From NCBI GenBank assembly GCA_965223845.1, contig CBDCXR010000004.1:4128001-4192000 (forward strand): a DNA stretch of 64,000 bases. Reading direction: 5' to 3'. The notes under the pieces were generated by a model. It had not been told where the DNA came from. It saw only the letters and a list, made by a program, of their open reading frames with translations, and made no database searches. The translations under genes were made by a program, and so were the position numbers. The stretch comes from Planctomycetota bacterium (GTDB lineage Bacteria > Planctomycetota > UBA8108 > SXIK01). This document shows positions 34,324-41,553 of this stretch, piece by piece; position 1 is the first letter of the stretch; every line of letters starts with the position of its first letter.

Positions 34324-35670
34324 CTACGAACGTTTCCTGAGTGAAGCCCGCCACGCGGTTTCGAGCGCATCGAACCGAACGTCGCGAAAGACGACGTCGA
34401 CGGCCTTCACCGGGTCGGTCCCCGACTGCAGCTCCCAGAAATAGTCCACGTAAAACCGGCGGACGCGGCGCTGGAGCGTCAAGTCGGTGTTCTTGTAGTT
34501 CAAGAGAAAGTAGACGAACGACCAGGCCTGCGCGTAGGCAATGCTCACTCGAGACGGATGATAGAAATCCGCTTGCGACATCTTGATGAGATCTCTCAGG
34601 TCGATCAATCGCCCCTCGCGGAGCGCCCACTGAACGACGCGTTCCCGCGACTCGTTGAAAAGCCGCTGGACGCCCGATCCGCGAACAACGCTCGGCGCGA
34701 CGATTTCAGCGAAGCCTTCGTCGAACCAGCGGGGGGCGTTCGGAATGTAGTAGTCGAAATACTGGTGCCAACCTTCGTGGTAGAAGCTGCGGAAGATGTC
34801 GCCTTCACGTTTGAAGCGCGGATTCGTCTGGTGGAATCCGACGAGGTGCTTCGATTGAGGATCGTAGTACGCTCCAGCCCCCGGCGAGCCGCCGCCGTGC
34901 TCGATGAATTCGTTCTGATTGCGCCAGAAGTAGACGATGTATTTGGTCTCGATCTTGTCCTCGAACTCGAAGGTCGGGTGATAGGCGCGCGCAGTCATGA
35001 TGTCCATGCTGCGACCGAGGCGGGCCGCGAGTTTCCGTTCGGCCGTCGAGAGCACGTGGTAGTACTTGGTCTCGATATGATGGCCCCGCTTCCCCCATCG
35101 CTCCGTGAAGGCGTCTATGGTCGCTCGATTGATCGCCGCCCAATCCTTGGGGACGCCGAGGTACTCGAGAAGGAGACGCATCGCAGGCTCGTACTTCTTC
35201 GTTCTTCCGCAGTAGTCGATCAGCTTGCCTGCGGTTCGCAGGTCGAGCGCGCGAAGCTTCGTTCGCCGAGTCGGCTTCTTTTTCCGCCGCTTCGACTTGG
35301 TCGATCCACTCTTCCTCTCGCCGTCCTTAGACCTTTCTTTCTCGGACTTCTTCTTGCGCAGAAACGCGTCCTTCAGGAGCTCTTCGACGTGCGAAAGCGA
35401 GACCGCTCGAACGGCGCTTCGTGAGCAGAGTAGCCAGAGAGAGTGCGAGTTTCGATTTTCGAGCACGTTCGCGACGTGCTCCTCCGTCGTCATGCGGAGC
35501 TGCTCCTTCCTCCGCCGCAGCTCTTCACGCCGATTCTTTCTCTCGCTCTCAGGTTTCGAAGCCTCCGTAGGAGGCGCCGGTTGCCCGGCCTCTAGTCCAA
35601 AGATCGGCGACACGCACAGCGCGACGACGGCTCGCCAGGCGAGATTCGATCGCTTGATTCGCACCCACAT
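34324..35670 (-). CDS. Secreted zincin-like (DUF1570/peptidase MA-like) protein
   Basis: HEGWHQY..PRWFDEGFAE, YAQAWSFVYFL; Lys-rich insertion; start chosen before the signal peptide. Confidence 0.7.
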   Translation of the reverse strand: MWVRIKRSNLAWRAVVALCVSPIFGLEAGQPAPPTEASKPESERKNRREELRRRKEQLRMTTEEHVANVLENRNSHSLWLLCSRSAVRAVSLSHVEELLKDAFLRKKKSEKERSKDGERKSGSTKSKRRKKKPTRRTKLRALDLRTAGKLIDYCGRTKKYEPAMRLLLEYLGVPKDWAAINRATIDAFTERWGKRGHHIETKYYHVLSTAERKLAARLGRSMDIMTARAYHPTFEFEDKIETKYIVYFWRNQNEFIEHGGGSPGAGAYYDPQSKHLVGFHQTNPRFKREGDIFRSFYHEGWHQYFDYYIPNAPRWFDEGFAEIVAPSVVRGSGVQRLFNESRERVVQWALREGRLIDLRDLIKMSQADFYHPSRVSIAYAQAWSFVYFLLNYKNTDLTLQRRVRRFYVDYFWELQSGTDPVKAVDVVFRDVRFDALETAWRASLRKRS

Positions 35671-35902
35671 ATCGATTCTCGTTCGAGTTCGCATCAAAGT
35701 CGGAATCGCCTTCAGATCAGAATCGGTCGGGACGGAAGACCCGATCGGAAGAGCCATTCTGAACGACGAGTTTGCGCTGTGTCCACCCAAGCTCGGCTTT
35801 ATCTGGAGAAGCCCGCATCGCTCGCGTACGATTTTCTACTCCGGCGATCAAAGAACGACGTTCGCCGTGCCTTTGGACCACTACCGGAGAATCCTCAGCC
35901 CC

Positions 35903-36382
35903 ATGGGAACTCTCATCCACACGAGCCGCTCGACGATTCGAAAGCACACCGGTCCCCACCGAACGGCGCAACTCGAGGCGCTCGAGGAACCGGTCCACTA
36001 CGGCATGCACGGTGGCATCCTCGAACTCTACCGCTCGAAGTACGGGATCGAAGTCGAGCGAGAGTACCCCGCAACGCTCGATCACATGGTCGCTGCGGTC
36101 GGCGGGTGACTGTGTGGCACGCTTGCCGCCGCGCTGGAGGCGCGACAGATCCCCACCACCGACAAGCTCTCCGCCCGCGTCGAGGGCGATATCGAGGACG
36201 TCGACGGAGTGATTCGCATCAGCACGATTCGCATGCACTACGAACTCGAGATCCCGCCGGGAACGAAAGACGCCGCGGAGCGTGCGCTCGCAACGTACGC
36301 CGATCGTTGCCCCGCGTACAAGTCGATCGAAGGGTGCATCAAGGTAGAATCGAGCGCGGCGTTCGCAGAGTCGAGTGCCTGA
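35903..36382 (+). CDS. OsmC-family protein with in-frame TGA at codon 69 (probable selenocysteine)
   Basis: GGAGA upstream of ATG 35903; frame reads ..DHMVAAVGG-TGA(36107-36109)-LCGTLAAALEARQI..ERALATYADRCPAYKSI.. to a stop at 36382; hairpin follows the TGA. Confidence 0.8.
36110..36148 (+). promoter_or_regulatory. Putative bacterial SECIS element
   Basis: CGCGC-TGGAG-GCGCG stem-loop at 36130-36144 with a loop G 27 nt after the UGA; CTGT/ACAG could close a lower stem. Confidence 0.55.
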
Positions 36383-36402
36383 ACCGACATCGAGCCGTCG
36401 CC

Positions 36403-39400
36403 ATGCGATTCGCTTTTGTCCTCATCGCCTTCGCCTCTTCGTTCGCGAGCCTCCGCGCGCAACCCATCGCGTCGCCGGGCAACCGCTGCACCTATCTCCA
36501 CGATCCGTCGCCGTTCTACGCCGGTCCATCGCTCCCGCGCGTGACCACGCCGATGTGGATCGGCGAAGAGAACGTCGACGCGGCGGTGATCCTCTCGATC
36601 GACGACCTCACGGAGGCTCGCGTCGACCACTACCGTGATTTTCTCGCTCCGATTCTCGCTCGACTAGACGAGATCCAGGGTTACAGCCCCCTCAATATCT
36701 TCACCAACCGCATCGATCCGAGCGATCCGCAGGTCCAGCGCTGGATCGATCAAGGCGTTCGGCTCGACGTCCACACGCGCACTCACCCCTGTCCCTTGAT
36801 GCGCCACGAGATTCCCGCCGCTACGAGCGAGGTGTTCGACTGTCTCTCGAACTTGAACGCCGTGCCGAATCACTTCGCGAATGCGTTTCGGATGCCGTGC
36901 ACGGACTCGATCAACTCGTCGACTCCGCTCTTCTTTCGCGAGATTCTCCCGCAGCGCACGAACGACGGACGATTTCTCGAAGTCGACAGCTCCGTGTCGA
37001 TGTTCCCGGACTCTTCCTACGAAGCCTACGCGCCGTTCCTCAATTACGCCGCGACGATCAGCGAGTATCCGTATCCGTACGTCGTCGGAGGGAACATCTG
37101 GGAGCTCCCGATCGTCGTGCCTACGGACTGGCAGGCACAGCATCGCCGCGGAGTGAATCACCCCCAGACGGTCGCCGAGGTCAAGCGCGCGTTCGACATC
37201 GTGATCGAAGCGAAGGGTCTCTACACGTGGTGCTTTCACCCGCACGGCTGGATCCGCAATACGCAGATCATCGAGGTGATCGACCACGTACGATCCCGCT
37301 ACGGCGCGCGGGTGAAGTTCCTCAATATCCAGGAGACGCTCGAACGACTGACGGAACACATGCTCGGTGGAGTCGCGCTCCGCGACGCCGATGGCTCCGA
37401 TGGCGGCGTCCGCCTCGTCGACATCGATGGCGACGGGAGGATGGACGTCGTCGTCGGAAACGATGCCCGCCGCGAGACGCGGGTTTGGCATTCGGAGTCC
37501 CGCACTTGGCGAACCGTGCCGTTTCCGTTTTCGATCGTCCGCGGACAAGGGTCGGCAAAGCGGGCGACGGGCGTCGAGTTCGGGGTTTTTCGCGCCGACG
37601 GAAAGATCTCGGCTCTGCTCGCGACGAAGAACGGCTCGACCTTCGCACACTTCGACGGGGAGCAGTGGACCCGTCAGCCGGCCCTCGGGCTCGTCGTCGA
37701 CGGAAAGCAGGTCGTCGGCAGAGACGACGGCCGTGACCGCGGGCTCCGCCTACGCGATGTCGACGGCGACGGGTACTCCGATGCGATCGTCAACAACGAC
37801 TCGCAAAACTTGATTTTTCGTTGGAACCCGCGGGAACGCGAATTCGAACGTCTCGCGAGTGTGCTCCCGGCGCTCGCTGCCGTCGTGGACGCCGAGGGAC
37901 GCGACGGCGGACTTCGCTTTTGGGACGTCGATCGAGACGGCGATGACGATCTCGTGCTATCGAACGATCGCGAGTACTTCGTCTATCTCTACGAGGATGC
38001 GACGAAAACCTGGTCGACGCGAGTTCTCCACGGGAGCTCCGGCGCTCCCGGCGCGCTACCGAAGATCACGAGTCGTGGCGAAGACCGCGGCGCTTGGTTC
38101 AAGGACACGACGCTCTACGTCGCCAACACCGCGACGGCCGGTCGGCCGAATCTCGTCGAGACTCGAGACTTCGCACAGCTCCTAGAGCACCGCGCGACTC
38201 CACCCAAGTCGCCCGAGGAGGCGCGCGCAACTCTCCGCGTTCCCGATGGATTCCGAGTCGAGCTCGTCGCCTCGGAGCCTCTCATCGCGGATCCGGTTTC
38301 CGTCGAGTTCGGTGCCGACGGGCGCGTCTGGGTTGCGGAGATGGGCTCGTACCCGCTCGGTCGCGGCGAAGAGGCGGACGGCCGGATCCGCGTTCTCCGC
38401 GATACGGACGGCGACGGCCGTCTCGACCAGAGCACTGTCTTCGCACACGGTCTCAGCTTCCCCGCCGGAGCGCTTCCGTTTCGCGGAGGTGTTCTCGTCA
38501 CGTGCGCGCCGAACATCTACTACTTCGAAGATCGAAACGGCGACGATCGAGCGGACTCGCGCGAGATCATCTTCTCGGGCTTCGGCGAAGGCAACCAGCA
38601 GCACCGGGTCAACGGCCTCCACTACGGAATCGACAACTGGATTTACGGTGCGAACGGCGACAGCGGCGGCACGATCCGCTCGGCGCGTGCCCCCGACCGT
38701 CCCGCGCTTCACCTCGGTGGACGCGACTTCCGCTTTCGCAAAGACCTCACCACCTTCGAAGCCGCGACCGGTCGCACGCAGTTCGGACTCGCGATGGACG
38801 ATTTCGGGCGGCGCTACGGTACGAGCAACTCGCGTCACATCCTCTACGCGGTCCTTCCCGATCGCTATCTCGGTCGAAATCCGCACGTCGCACCACCGAA
38901 CGCCGTCCTCGACATCGCGGAGCACGGCGCCATGGCGCGGATTTATCCGATCTCGAAACAGCTGATCTCGCTCAACTCGATTCACGTTCCGGGTCACTTC
39001 AGCTCTGCGTGCGGAATCTCGATCTACCGCGGCGAGCGATTCCCTCCGTCCTACCGCGGCTCGGCGTTCGTCGCGGATCCCGTCGCGAACCTCGTCCACC
39101 GCGACGTCCTCGTGCCGGACGGAGCCTCGGTGGTTGCACGCCGGAGCGAGAACGAAACGGACTCGGAGTTCCTCGCGTCGACGGACGCCTGGTTTCGCCC
39201 CGTTTACACGACGACCGGACCCGACGGCGCGCTCTACGTGGTCGACATGCACCGCTACATCATCGAGCATCCGGAGTACATCCCGGAGGACTTGCAGCAG
39301 ATTCTCGACTTCGCAGCCGGCCGGGACCGCGGCCGAATCTACCGGGTCGTCTACGCGAGCGCCGATCCGAGATCGGAGGTCGCGCGAATTCCGGTCGCGC

Positions 39401-41553
39401 CATCTCTCGACGCGGAGTCGGATCTCGCCGCGGCGCTCGCGTCCCCGAACGGATGGATCCGCGACACCGCGCAGCGTCTCATCGTTGAACATCGTCCCGC
39501 GGGGATCGCGACCGCGCTGCGCTCGCTCGCTCGCGCGAGCGAGCGAGCGGCGACTCGCATCCACGCGCTCTGGACGCTCGACGCGCTCGGTGCGCTGGAC
39601 GAGTCGATTCTACGGGCCAGCTTCTCCGACCCGAGCGCCGACGTCCGCGAGCACGCCGCGCGGCTCGCCGAATCGCGCATCGATGCGGAACCCGTCTTCA
39701 CCGATGTCGTCGCCCTCACTCGAGATTCGGCGGCGCGCGTTCGCGTGCAGGTCGCGTTCACGCTCGGCGCGTCTTCGCACCCGCTCGCCGGCGTCGCTCT
39801 CGCCGATCTTCTCCGTCGCCACGAGCAGGATCCGTGGCTTCGCGCGGCCGTCTTGAGCTCGAGCCGAACTCACGCCGGCGGGATCCTCGCGGAGCTCGCC
39901 GGGAGCGAAGACGGGCCCTGGACTCTCGAGACGAGCGGCGATCGCGCGGTGTTCAACGCCCTCGTCGCGACCGTGGCGCGCGAGTCGAGCGACGACGCGC
40001 TTCGGCATCTCCTCGCTCGGCTCGATCCGGGCGACGTTCGCCGCGGACATTTCTCGCTCCTCGGCACGCTCGCGACCGCCGCCGGAGCACGACTCGAGAG
40101 AATCGCGAGCGCGAATGCGGACGTGAGCGCCGCCATCGCCGGAACGCGGCGAGCGGCGCGCGAGAAGGCCATCGATCCCTCGGCCGCCCTCGCGCTCCGG
40201 GTCGAAGCGGTCCGAGCGCTCGGCGGAGAGGCTGCCGATCTCGTCGTACTCGAAGCGCTCGTCGCGCCACGAACGCCGAGCGATCTCCAGATCGAAGCTC
40301 TCCGGCTAGTCAAGTCGGCGTCCGAAGACCGTCGCGCCACCGCGGCCGAGTTCCTTCTCGCGCGGTGGGATGCGCTCGGTCCGCGGATCCGCGGTGAAAC
40401 GCTCGAGCTGCTCGTCTCCACTCCGAGCGGGGCCGACCGAATCGCGGCGGCGATCGACGCGCAGCGACTCGATCCCCGCCACGTGAGCTCACCGCTTCGC
40501 TCCCGTTTGCGCGCGAGCGCCTCGCCGGAAGTGCGCGCTCGCCTCGCACGTGCATTCGCGCCGCCGCGAGCATCGTCCCCCGAAGCACACGCGGAGTATC
40601 GCGCGCAAGTTCGCTCTCTCCGCGGAGAAGCGGAGAGCGGGCGCGCGGTGTTCGAAGAGCACTGCTCGAACTGCCATCGTCTCGACGGCCTCGGCTTCGA
40701 CGTCGGTCCGCGGATCGAAGACGCCGCCGTCAAAGGAATCGAGAGCGTCCTCGAAGCGATCTTGGCACCGGCCGAATTCGTCCCGCCGCGCTACACGCCC
40801 TACATTGTCGAGAGTTCCAGCGGACAGGTCGCCACGGGTCTCATCGCAGAAGAGACCGCGACGAGCGTCCGGCTCGTCCGTCCGGGCGGCGTCACCGAAA
40901 CGATCCTCCGGAGCGATCTCGAATCACTCACCGCCGACGAAGGTTCGCTGATGCCATCCGATCTCGCGGCAGCGATCTCGCCGCAGGCGATGGCGGATCT
41001 TCTCGCCTTCGTCGCGCAGCGACCCGCGAACCTCGACGCACTCGACCCGGAGGCGACTCGGGCCGCGAGTGCGATCGTCGAGGCGAACGCTCACAACGGC
41101 CTCGCGGAGGTGCTCGAGGCGACGGAGATCGCGGATCAGGCGAGCTGGGTCGGTCGCATTCGGATGTCGCTCGCACGCCAGCTCGACGGGAAGCACGCCG
41201 TCGCGTGGAAAACGGATGTGGTCCCCGACTCGCTCGAATCTGCGACGTACTCGTTTCACTTGCCGGTCGCGATGGGCTACGTCAGCCAGCCGAGCGGATC
41301 CTTCACCCTCCACGTCGGCGAGCGGCGTGTGCTCGAATTCAACGTCACGCTCGAAAGCGCGACGTGGAAGTCGCCCGGAGGCGCCGCGCGACTCGACTAC
41401 TCAGTCCGTGCGCGAAACAGCGAAGATTCGACCGGGATCTTGACCGTCACCGTGCCGATCGGTTGGCTCGAACCGGGCTCCCCCGCGACGCTCCGCGTCA
41501 CCGGATCCAGCACGGGGAGCCGCCGCTGGTTCGGCGTGCTGCCGCTCCGCTGA
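36403..41553 (+). CDS. Multidomain secreted protein: polysaccharide-deacetylase-like, FG-GAP repeats, PVC-type beta-propeller dehydrogenase, HEAT repeats, cytochrome c
   Basis: LSIDD, HTRTHP, FRMPC, FHPH; DIDGDG repeats; VPDGFRVELVASEP..GNQQHRVNG..WFRPV..GPDGALY; HEAT-like helices; CSNCH. Confidence 0.85.
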   Translation: MRFAFVLIAFASSFASLRAQPIASPGNRCTYLHDPSPFYAGPSLPRVTTPMWIGEENVDAAVILSIDDLTEARVDHYRDFLAPILARLDEIQGYSPLNIFTNRIDPSDPQVQRWIDQGVRLDVHTRTHPCPLMRHEIPAATSEVFDCLSNLNAVPNHFANAFRMPCTDSINSSTPLFFREILPQRTNDGRFLEVDSSVSMFPDSSYEAYAPFLNYAATISEYPYPYVVGGNIWELPIVVPTDWQAQHRRGVNHPQTVAEVKRAFDIVIEAKGLYTWCFHPHGWIRNTQIIEVIDHVRSRYGARVKFLNIQETLERLTEHMLGGVALRDADGSDGGVRLVDIDGDGRMDVVVGNDARRETRVWHSESRTWRTVPFPFSIVRGQGSAKRATGVEFGVFRADGKISALLATKNGSTFAHFDGEQWTRQPALGLVVDGKQVVGRDDGRDRGLRLRDVDGDGYSDAIVNNDSQNLIFRWNPREREFERLASVLPALAAVVDAEGRDGGLRFWDVDRDGDDDLVLSNDREYFVYLYEDATKTWSTRVLHGSSGAPGALPKITSRGEDRGAWFKDTTLYVANTATAGRPNLVETRDFAQLLEHRATPPKSPEEARATLRVPDGFRVELVASEPLIADPVSVEFGADGRVWVAEMGSYPLGRGEEADGRIRVLRDTDGDGRLDQSTVFAHGLSFPAGALPFRGGVLVTCAPNIYYFEDRNGDDRADSREIIFSGFGEGNQQHRVNGLHYGIDNWIYGANGDSGGTIRSARAPDRPALHLGGRDFRFRKDLTTFEAATGRTQFGLAMDDFGRRYGTSNSRHILYAVLPDRYLGRNPHVAPPNAVLDIAEHGAMARIYPISKQLISLNSIHVPGHFSSACGISIYRGERFPPSYRGSAFVADPVANLVHRDVLVPDGASVVARRSENETDSEFLASTDAWFRPVYTTTGPDGALYVVDMHRYIIEHPEYIPEDLQQILDFAAGRDRGRIYRVVYASADPRSEVARIPVAPSLDAESDLAAALASPNGWIRDTAQRLIVEHRPAGIATALRSLARASERAATRIHALWTLDALGALDESILRASFSDPSADVREHAARLAESRIDAEPVFTDVVALTRDSAARVRVQVAFTLGASSHPLAGVALADLLRRHEQDPWLRAAVLSSSRTHAGGILAELAGSEDGPWTLETSGDRAVFNALVATVARESSDDALRHLLARLDPGDVRRGHFSLLGTLATAAGARLERIASANADVSAAIAGTRRAAREKAIDPSAALALRVEAVRALGGEAADLVVLEALVAPRTPSDLQIEALRLVKSASEDRRATAAEFLLARWDALGPRIRGETLELLVSTPSGADRIAAAIDAQRLDPRHVSSPLRSRLRASASPEVRARLARAFAPPRASSPEAHAEYRAQVRSLRGEAESGRAVFEEHCSNCHRLDGLGFDVGPRIEDAAVKGIESVLEAILAPAEFVPPRYTPYIVESSSGQVATGLIAEETATSVRLVRPGGVTETILRSDLESLTADEGSLMPSDLAAAISPQAMADLLAFVAQRPANLDALDPEATRAASAIVEANAHNGLAEVLEATEIADQASWVGRIRMSLARQLDGKHAVAWKTDVVPDSLESATYSFHLPVAMGYVSQPSGSFTLHVGERRVLEFNVTLESATWKSPGGAARLDYSVRARNSEDSTGILTVTVPIGWLEPGSPATLRVTGSSTGSRRWFGVLPLR

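Follow-up and report, generated by a model that had tools for sequence, protein, structure and literature searches.

The 64,000-nucleotide stretch of a Planctomycetota genome analysed here (contig CBDCXR010000004.1, positions 4,128,001 to 4,192,000; hereafter the window) was found to carry, at positions 35903-36382 of its forward strand, a gene whose reading frame is crossed by an in-frame UGA codon and which, judged from its sequence, is almost certainly a genuine selenoprotein gene. The encoded protein is assigned to the OsmC superfamily and, with appreciably less confidence, is predicted to be a hydroperoxide reductase. The joint reading, an OsmC-superfamily selenoprotein with a hydroperoxide-reductase role, is given a probability of about 0.88, the weight lying on the selenoprotein part. 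An OsmC-family selenoprotein had been put forward at this place in a first-pass annotation made from the letters of the window, and this overall reading is supported by conservation, by covariation and by the selenocysteine (Sec, U) machinery of the genome. The features on which the argument turns are listed below; alignment A5 holds 147 family members, and the 157 open reading frames (ORFs) are the distinct complete ones, the window's included, after removal of duplicates and incomplete genes.

35903..36382, forward strand: predicted selenoprotein gene of the OsmC superfamily, 159 codons plus a terminal TGA (translated with TGA as U; PF02566)
35960..35962, forward strand: codon of Arg20, a candidate active-site Arg, present in 147/147 members of A5 and 100% of ORFs
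36080..36082, forward strand: codon of Asp60, an acidic residue 9 residues before the Sec, present in 147/147 members and placed by hhalign on the Glu of the YhfA-type motif NPxEYLL
36107..36109, forward strand: UGA codon 69, predicted to be read as Sec at the peroxidatic position, aligned to the catalytic Cys of 1ukk and of YhfA-type OsmC proteins
36130..36144, forward strand: predicted selenocysteine insertion sequence (SECIS) hairpin, with stem CGCGC at 36130-36134, loop UGGAG at 36135-36139 and stem GCGCG at 36140-36144, based on sequence, minimum free energy (MFE) fold and covariation
36134..36136, forward strand: CUG codon of Leu78, an invariant synonymous site within the SECIS (157/157 ORFs)
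36308..36310, forward strand: TGC codon of Cys136, the presumed resolving Cys, present in 157/157 ORFs and 147/147 members of A5 and aligned with the second Cys of 1ukk and the Cys of the YhfA-type motif RCPV
36380..36382, forward strand: true stop codon TGA, with no SECIS behind it; homologs terminate there too, with TGA or TAG

The frame opens with the ATG at 35903, where the start Met lines up with the N-terminal starts of homologs, and reaches its first TGA at codon 69. Past this codon the same frame runs on for 90 more sense codons to the TGA at 36380-36382, and 20 nucleotides (nt) separate it from the ATG of the downstream gene (36403). Translation with TGA as U gives 159 residues containing AAVGG-U-LCGT and DRCPAYKSI. 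The particulars of the frame, from the ORF stop at 36107-36109 to the length and motifs of the read-through product, had been given in the first-pass annotation and were found to be exact.

Relatives were collected by a pattern-plus-tblastn scan, which confirmed 115 in a species-representative genome collection and 272 in a metagenome collection. The best 80 of each collection, that is the best 160 of the 387 tblastn-confirmed relatives, were taken as the set for analysis at the DNA level. TGA occupies the column of residue 69 in every one of these 160 loci, with no TGC, TGT, TGG or GGN among them, at 44–67% identity and with labels of eight phyla (metagenome-assembled genomes (MAGs) labelled Planctomycetota, Myxococcota, Actinomycetota, Acidobacteriota, Thermodesulfobacteriota, Deferrimicrobiota, Pseudomonadota and Gemmatimonadota). 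The same codon is present in 157/157 ORFs, and in the five of 60 related genomes that have a homolog (53–68% identity) it lies at the same column in all five, within the motif AAV[G/A]G-TGA-L-x-G-T. Conservation extends to both sides of the UGA: the mean identity of 146 relatives to the window protein is 55.9% over residues 1-68 and 53.3% over residues 70-150, and the residues invariant in A5 include R20, Y43, L59 and D60 before the UGA and G72, T73, L78, C136 and P137 after it.

At the protein level, a family-profile search of 1.84 billion representative proteins returned 988 matches at E <= 0.001, of which the best 150 were inspected together with five from a near-length search. Column 69 in these 155 proteins holds Cys in 67 (for example P0004 and P0006), W in four, G in three, R in three and other residues in 12, while 27 gene calls stop exactly at the column and 30 begin just past it. 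Calls of the last two kinds are expected here, since gene callers produce such fragments from a Sec gene. The Cys forms, on the other hand, are single chains. The first-pass annotation had proposed a search for homologs with Cys or TGA at codon 69, and both were found, TGA in the DNA-level loci and Cys in these 67 proteins. A frame conserved in this way, with Sec and Cys alternating at one column, is the pattern classically shown by true selenoprotein families.

The W and G variants are explained most simply if metagenomic gene callers applied genetic code table 4 or 25 to the TGA, since these are the residues that the two tables print for it; calls of this kind feed false 'Trp' variants into protein databases. 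The W forms P0002, P0003, P0007 and P0120 and the G form P0073 are public gene calls on short contigs. In a FastTree phylogeny of 209 rows, two W rows nest within a starred clade holding 97 Sec rows. No fetched locus encodes P0002, P0003 or P0007 exactly, the nearest having 23 mismatches, so that for these three the tree position is the sole basis for an origin of W from TGA. The Sec label changes five times on the same tree, with at least three changes forced by starred branches, and Sec and Cys have therefore been swapped a few times. Six full-length homologs among the 155 (P0037, P0062, P0080, P0098, P0110 and P0112) carry Ser, Gly or Asp in place of Sec/Cys, have Ser where Cys136 would stand, or combine the two changes, and have probably lost the redox pair.

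Bacterial SECIS elements are described as stem-loops that follow the UGA closely and carry a G in a small apical loop (PMC1088965). The CGCGC/GCGCG stem with a TGGAG loop that the first-pass annotation had placed 21 nt past the UGA is present at 36130-36144, the first base of the stem being the 21st nt past the UGA and the loop beginning 26 nt past it. The 48 nt from the UGA onward gave a gap-free alignment of 136 distinct sequences, which were split by the residues right after U and not by stem bases. In the Leu(+1) group, to which the window belongs (97 distinct sequences), helix columns 23-28/34-39 are paired in 96.9% of 582 cells, and three of the six helix pairs change on both sides. Pair 27:35 is GC in 51 sequences, AU in 40, GU in two and other in four; pair 23:39 is CG in 70, GC in 14 and GU in five. 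Neither the pairing nor the covariation was matched by any of 500 shuffles, and when the 3' arm was displaced by 1-3 columns pairing fell to 16.7–64.3%. The hairpin, first noticed in the window as SECIS-like, is thus conserved with covariation among its relatives. In the switch at 27:35, a synonymous change (Ala GCG to GCA) goes together with one that alters the residue (Ala GCG to Val GUG), which indicates that the protein sequence yields to preserve the stem. Synonymous sites are frozen in this region: the third base of the Leu78 codon is G in all 157 ORFs, compared with C 93, G 49 and T 15 at the equally invariant Leu59. Bases U29-G30-G31 are unchanged in 136/136 distinct segments.

In a second group, designated 'xM' (33 sequences), the hairpin lies 7 nt further upstream, at columns 16-22/29-35 with the loop CGGUGC, and is 96.1% paired compared with at most 54.1% when slid. 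In every clade variant a small loop with a G in it lies about 20-30 nt past the UGA, and the usual spacing between UGA and SECIS is 16-37 nt. The register of the element varies among clades (A2 columns 16-39, window 36122-36145), with the loop at columns 29-33, 23-28, 25-29 or 23-27, and the invariant U29-G30-G31 falls in the loop in one clade and in the 3' arm in another. A scan of 35800-36500 with Rfam gave no bacterial SECIS family, its only hits being noise at E 3-4 (Acido-Lenti-1 and sR39). A mini-hairpin further upstream in the MFE fold (36114-36129) appeared by eye to be unconserved in most relatives and was dropped.

The presence of Sec machinery elsewhere in the genome, which a selenoprotein in the window would imply, was borne out. 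The genome (7.93 Mb in four contigs, 91.7% complete) has selD (307.8 bits), selA (536.2 bits) and selB (320.2 bits, or 352.7 with the C-terminal neighbouring stretch), all above their curated cut-offs, and a tRNA-Sec at 68.1 bits, above its cut-off, which ARAGORN also calls as tRNA-SeC with the anticodon tca. It also contains a formate dehydrogenase alpha (FdhA) gene (L198:1501-3504, minus strand; G000:C4:4982933-4984936) which matches TIGR01591 at 731 bits and has a single in-frame TGA in the canonical context C-S-R-A-U-H. The complete machinery and the Sec-containing FdhA together show that the Sec system is in use in this genome. The SECIS-like hairpin of the FdhA gene (GUCGCC-GGUCU-GGCGGC, with a 6-bp G/C stem) begins 12 nt past its TGA. 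Like the OsmC-type hairpin it is an intra-coding element shortly past the UGA, as is the E. coli fdhF SECIS, and both hairpins of this genome have a G/C-rich stem of 5-6 bp and a 5-nt apical loop containing GG. They differ in position and loop, the FdhA stem lying 12 nt after the UGA with the loop GGUCU and the OsmC-type stem 20 nt after with the loop UGGAG. As a separate observation, the selD match (L001; G000:C4:5317241-5318161, minus strand) lies within an 809-amino-acid (aa) stop-free open frame, whereas the profile is 311 positions long, and the frame may encode a fusion protein.

The OsmC assignment comes from Pfam PF02566 (E 5.2e-15; 56.1 bits, cut-off 27.5), which covers residues 56-150 and profile positions 6-99 of 100. 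The solved structures matched by sequence were OsmC proteins only, namely 1ukk of T. thermophilus (E 8e-4) and 1lql, and the family profile matches 1ukk at E 1.8e-4. The catalytic Cys of 1ukk ('...AAHAGC...') falls on the UGA and its second catalytic Cys on Cys136, in agreement with the earlier placement of the UGA at the catalytic Cys position. A comparison by hhalign with YhfA-type OsmC proteins gave a probability of 95.4% (E 1.9e-8, 18% identity), with Cys aligned to Cys and Asp60 to Glu. The protein therefore shares with OsmC (1ukk; TIGR03562) and Ohr (TIGR03561) both catalytic Cys columns, a size of about 140-160 aa and an acidic residue about 9-10 residues ahead of the first Cys, which in OsmC/Ohr is Glu. 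It differs from them in that Sec replaces the peroxidatic Cys and in that its N-terminal region is unaligned to 1ukk. Proteins of the OsmC fold form domain-swapped dimers whose active site lies at the interface.

OsmC and Ohr proteins reduce hydroperoxides by means of a peroxidatic and a resolving Cys, and a two-step hydroperoxide reduction is proposed here on the strength of this mechanism. During translation the UGA of codon 69 would not be taken as a stop; the hairpin at 36130-36144 would act as a bacterial SECIS, recruiting SelB-GTP-Sec-tRNA(Sec) to the ribosome, and selenocysteine would be inserted. Sec69 would then take the peroxidatic position of OsmC/Ohr and Cys136 the resolving one. 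The selenolate of Sec69 would attack the hydroperoxide (ROOH) to give a selenenic acid, which Cys136 would resolve to an intramolecular selenenylsulfide, and a thiol reductant would reduce the latter in turn. Sec insertion, SelB binding to the hairpin, peroxidase activity and the reductant are what we infer from the comparisons above. Arg20 may be equivalent to the catalytic Arg of OsmC/Ohr.

Several observations weigh against these conclusions. The 227 relatives that lie beyond the DNA-level set could include TGC or TGT forms. Over 35803-36482 the window is matched without a difference by contigs of four public runs (DNA or of unknown type), as a check for base-call error had called for, but these runs come from two samples of one study, perhaps the assembly's own source, and are not independent; an error of base calling and a nonsense mutation private to this genome are nevertheless excluded at codon 69. 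When the 64 nt of the window are folded alone, z is -0.02 and 92 of 200 shuffles fold equally well, so that the window hairpin by itself is not separable from chance in GC-rich sequence and the case for a SECIS rests on the comparison of relatives. The outermost pair of the window (23:39) is a C/A mismatch. The 'xM' helix shows no double-sided change, being conserved rather than covarying, and could reflect plain sequence conservation, while the hairpin of a third group (six sequences; GCCGCC-GGUCU-GGCGGC) was assessed from MFE folds only. The co-occurrence of selA with the gene is uninformative, as selA is present in 5/5 gene carriers and also in 58/61 relatives overall. With respect to function, similarity to experimentally characterised OsmC proteins is weak (E 1.8e-4 to 8e-4), and Arg20 was not placed on the known catalytic Arg, as no solved-structure alignment extends that far. 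The window protein scores 20.5 bits on NCBIfam TIGR03562 (OsmC; cut-off 85.8, best E 4e-7 among the 147 members) and 19.5 bits on the SACOL1771 subfamily (cut-off 166), and only five of 147 members match TIGR03561 (Ohr) at E <= 0.01 (best E 2.1e-4). With scores so far below the OsmC/Ohr cut-offs and such weak similarity, peroxidase activity is an extrapolation.

These last points also bear on the possibility, held to be the less likely one although a serious competitor, that the protein is a selenoprotein but not a peroxidase, acting instead as a disulfide or selenenylsulfide oxidoreductase, a persulfide or selenium carrier, or a redox sensor. Besides the low scores and the unmapped catalytic Arg, it agrees with this possibility that many OsmC-superfamily proteins of the YhfA type have no known activity and that no conserved neighbour hints at a pathway. 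Against it, the protein retains the two Cys positions at which OsmC/Ohr proteins carry out catalysis, along with their acidic residue, all of them invariant, and the best NCBIfam matches of the family members are all named peroxiredoxins. The Sargasso Sea survey places most replacements of Cys by Sec in thiol peroxidases and oxidoreductases (PMC1088965). A hydroperoxide reductase remains the preferred reading of the function.

OsmC-like selenoproteins have been reported before, as the first-pass annotation correctly stated. An 'OsmC-like protein' family was described from the Sargasso Sea with three sequences, COG1765 and the motif UxxT (Zhang, Fomenko and Gladyshev 2005; PMC1088965), five sequences were given in the Global Ocean Sampling (GOS) study of 2008, and reviews of 2022 and 2026 list the family unchanged. 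It is conceivable, although rather unlikely, that the window protein is a plain member of the 2005 family (UxxT, COG1765, NF041052) and nothing new. The two have much in common: the published family is given as PF02566 in PMC2398784 and PMC13188914, Sec stands in the same catalytic column in place of the first catalytic Cys, the SECIS of each has a G in a small apical loop, and each has Cys homologs. NF041052, named 'OsmC-related (seleno)protein', probably models the 2005 family. On this model the window protein reaches 20.2 bits against a cut-off of 95, and 73 of the 147 members match at E <= 0.01 (best E 3e-8). The phylum's ordinary YhfA-type proteins, a set to which the window locus does not belong, reach 45-95 bits, and no match above the cut-off was found in the window's genome.

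The motif also differs from the printed UxxT. The clade reads U-[L/M]-x-G-T, with Gly at +3 and Thr at +4 in 147/147 members, and residue +2 after the Sec is Thr in 74, Met in 46, Leu in 17, Val in five, Cys in four and Ala in one. The additional Cys two residues after U ('UxC'), which had been singled out as a feature of the window protein, is thus confined to the window and three close relatives; it is lineage-specific and lies outside the redox motif. The N-terminal half (HTSR..I.KH.GPHRTA ... HGGI..FY) has no YhfA-type counterpart, hhalign placing a 10-column gap there, and the profile-profile identity to YhfA-type proteins is the 18% given above. UxxT is a weak discriminator, however, as the motif of the 2005 family may be loose: some NF041052-type proteins, such as L188, read G-C-x-x-G-T. 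At 95.5 bits, L188 (G418:C198:5892-6290) is the sole match in the 401 genomes sampled from the phylum to exceed the NF041052 cut-off, and it has an in-frame TAG about 25 residues ahead of the second Cys, which may mark a pseudogene, a fault in the assembly or a recoding event. A candidate Sec member of the NF041052 type in G215 was rejected, being a Cys form whose in-frame TGA is the terminal stop, and no true Sec member of this type was found as a comparator.

The 2005 family is, as published, rare, of the COG1765/YhfA kind and known from Sargasso Sea and GOS data, while the present clade, with its distinct N-terminal half, comes from soil, sediment and freshwater metagenomes and from the MAGs of eight phyla. 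A distinct and uncatalogued subfamily is regarded as fairly to quite likely, set apart from the 2005 family by the printed motif and the NF041052 score and not by the sequences of that family. The clade was not found described in a limited search of the literature on OsmC-like and planctomycete selenoproteins, with supplementary tables (such as S9 of PMC4807772, which holds planctomycete candidates) lying outside the scope of that search. The fuller proposition, an uncatalogued prokaryotic Sec family with near-obligate Sec, a spread over eight phyla and a register-shifted SECIS (loop displaced by about 4-6 nt between clades, frozen CUG-G core), which is missed by annotation models, is favoured only by a narrow margin.

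It is very improbable that the UGA is decoded in another way, as Trp or Gly under a variant code or by near-cognate read-through giving Trp, Cys or Arg. The four W and three G residues at the column among predicted proteins would fit this, as tables 4 and 25 print them; however, the terminator of the gene is itself TGA in the window and in three of four complete relatives, the eight phyla of the carriers use the standard bacterial code, the W rows fall within the Sec clade, TGG or GGN occurs in 0/160 loci, and a covarying hairpin and the full Sec machinery are present. A nonsense pseudogene, two small genes or a base-call error can practically be dismissed, for although public gene callers give two fragments and the ORF table stops at 36109, the TGA holds one column in 160/160 divergent loci with both sides equally conserved, the Cys forms are single-chain, the codon after the UGA in the window's clade is CUN Leu, which is unusual as a start, and the contigs of the four runs show no differences.

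The public record of the gene reflects the difficulty of annotating it. In the public gene calls of the window's genome it is split into fragments of 68 aa (P0157) and 57 aa (P0167), and 57 of the 155 top matches are fragments that stop at the UGA or begin beyond it. Of 39 short matches in protein collections, all eight with source-given names are called "hypothetical protein", and the near-length protein search returned no full-length NCBI-sourced record. No NCBIfam model captures the family (147 members), and annotation which depends on NCBIfam should consequently miss the Sec. A phylum-wide protein search matched two of 401 sampled genomes at E <= 1e-8 (the window's own and G003), which indicates a patchy presence within the phylum. 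The spread of the clade over eight phyla would most simply be explained by horizontal transfer.

The gene is flanked in the window by the following genes, both recognised by domain matches.

34324-35790, minus strand: DUF1570 protein
36403-41550, forward strand: 1716-aa DUF7133 / FG-GAP / HEAT / cytochrome c protein

These DUF1570 and DUF7133-type neighbours are not kept beside the gene at other loci. All-against-all clustering of the flanking ORFs of 161 loci found no conserved partner gene, the biggest credible cluster covering 12 loci, in an analysis swamped by spurious GC-rich ORFs. Two antisense ORFs (35717-36238 and 36238-36630, minus strand) had no Pfam match and were taken as spurious.

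The decoding mechanism is entirely conventional, and the finding leaves the understanding of how Sec decoding works unchanged. What it adds to the known bacterial selenoproteins is a clade that is well supported and, it seems, uncatalogued. A systematic annotation error is exposed as well, in which the gene is recorded as fragments split at the UGA, and a model built from alignment A5 could mend many of these records. The clade-specific SECIS registers within one conserved frame offer a compact case of co-evolution between RNA structure and protein sequence, and the near-obligate Sec form with its rarer Cys relatives provides a natural system for asking what selenium gives to a Cys-based peroxidase.

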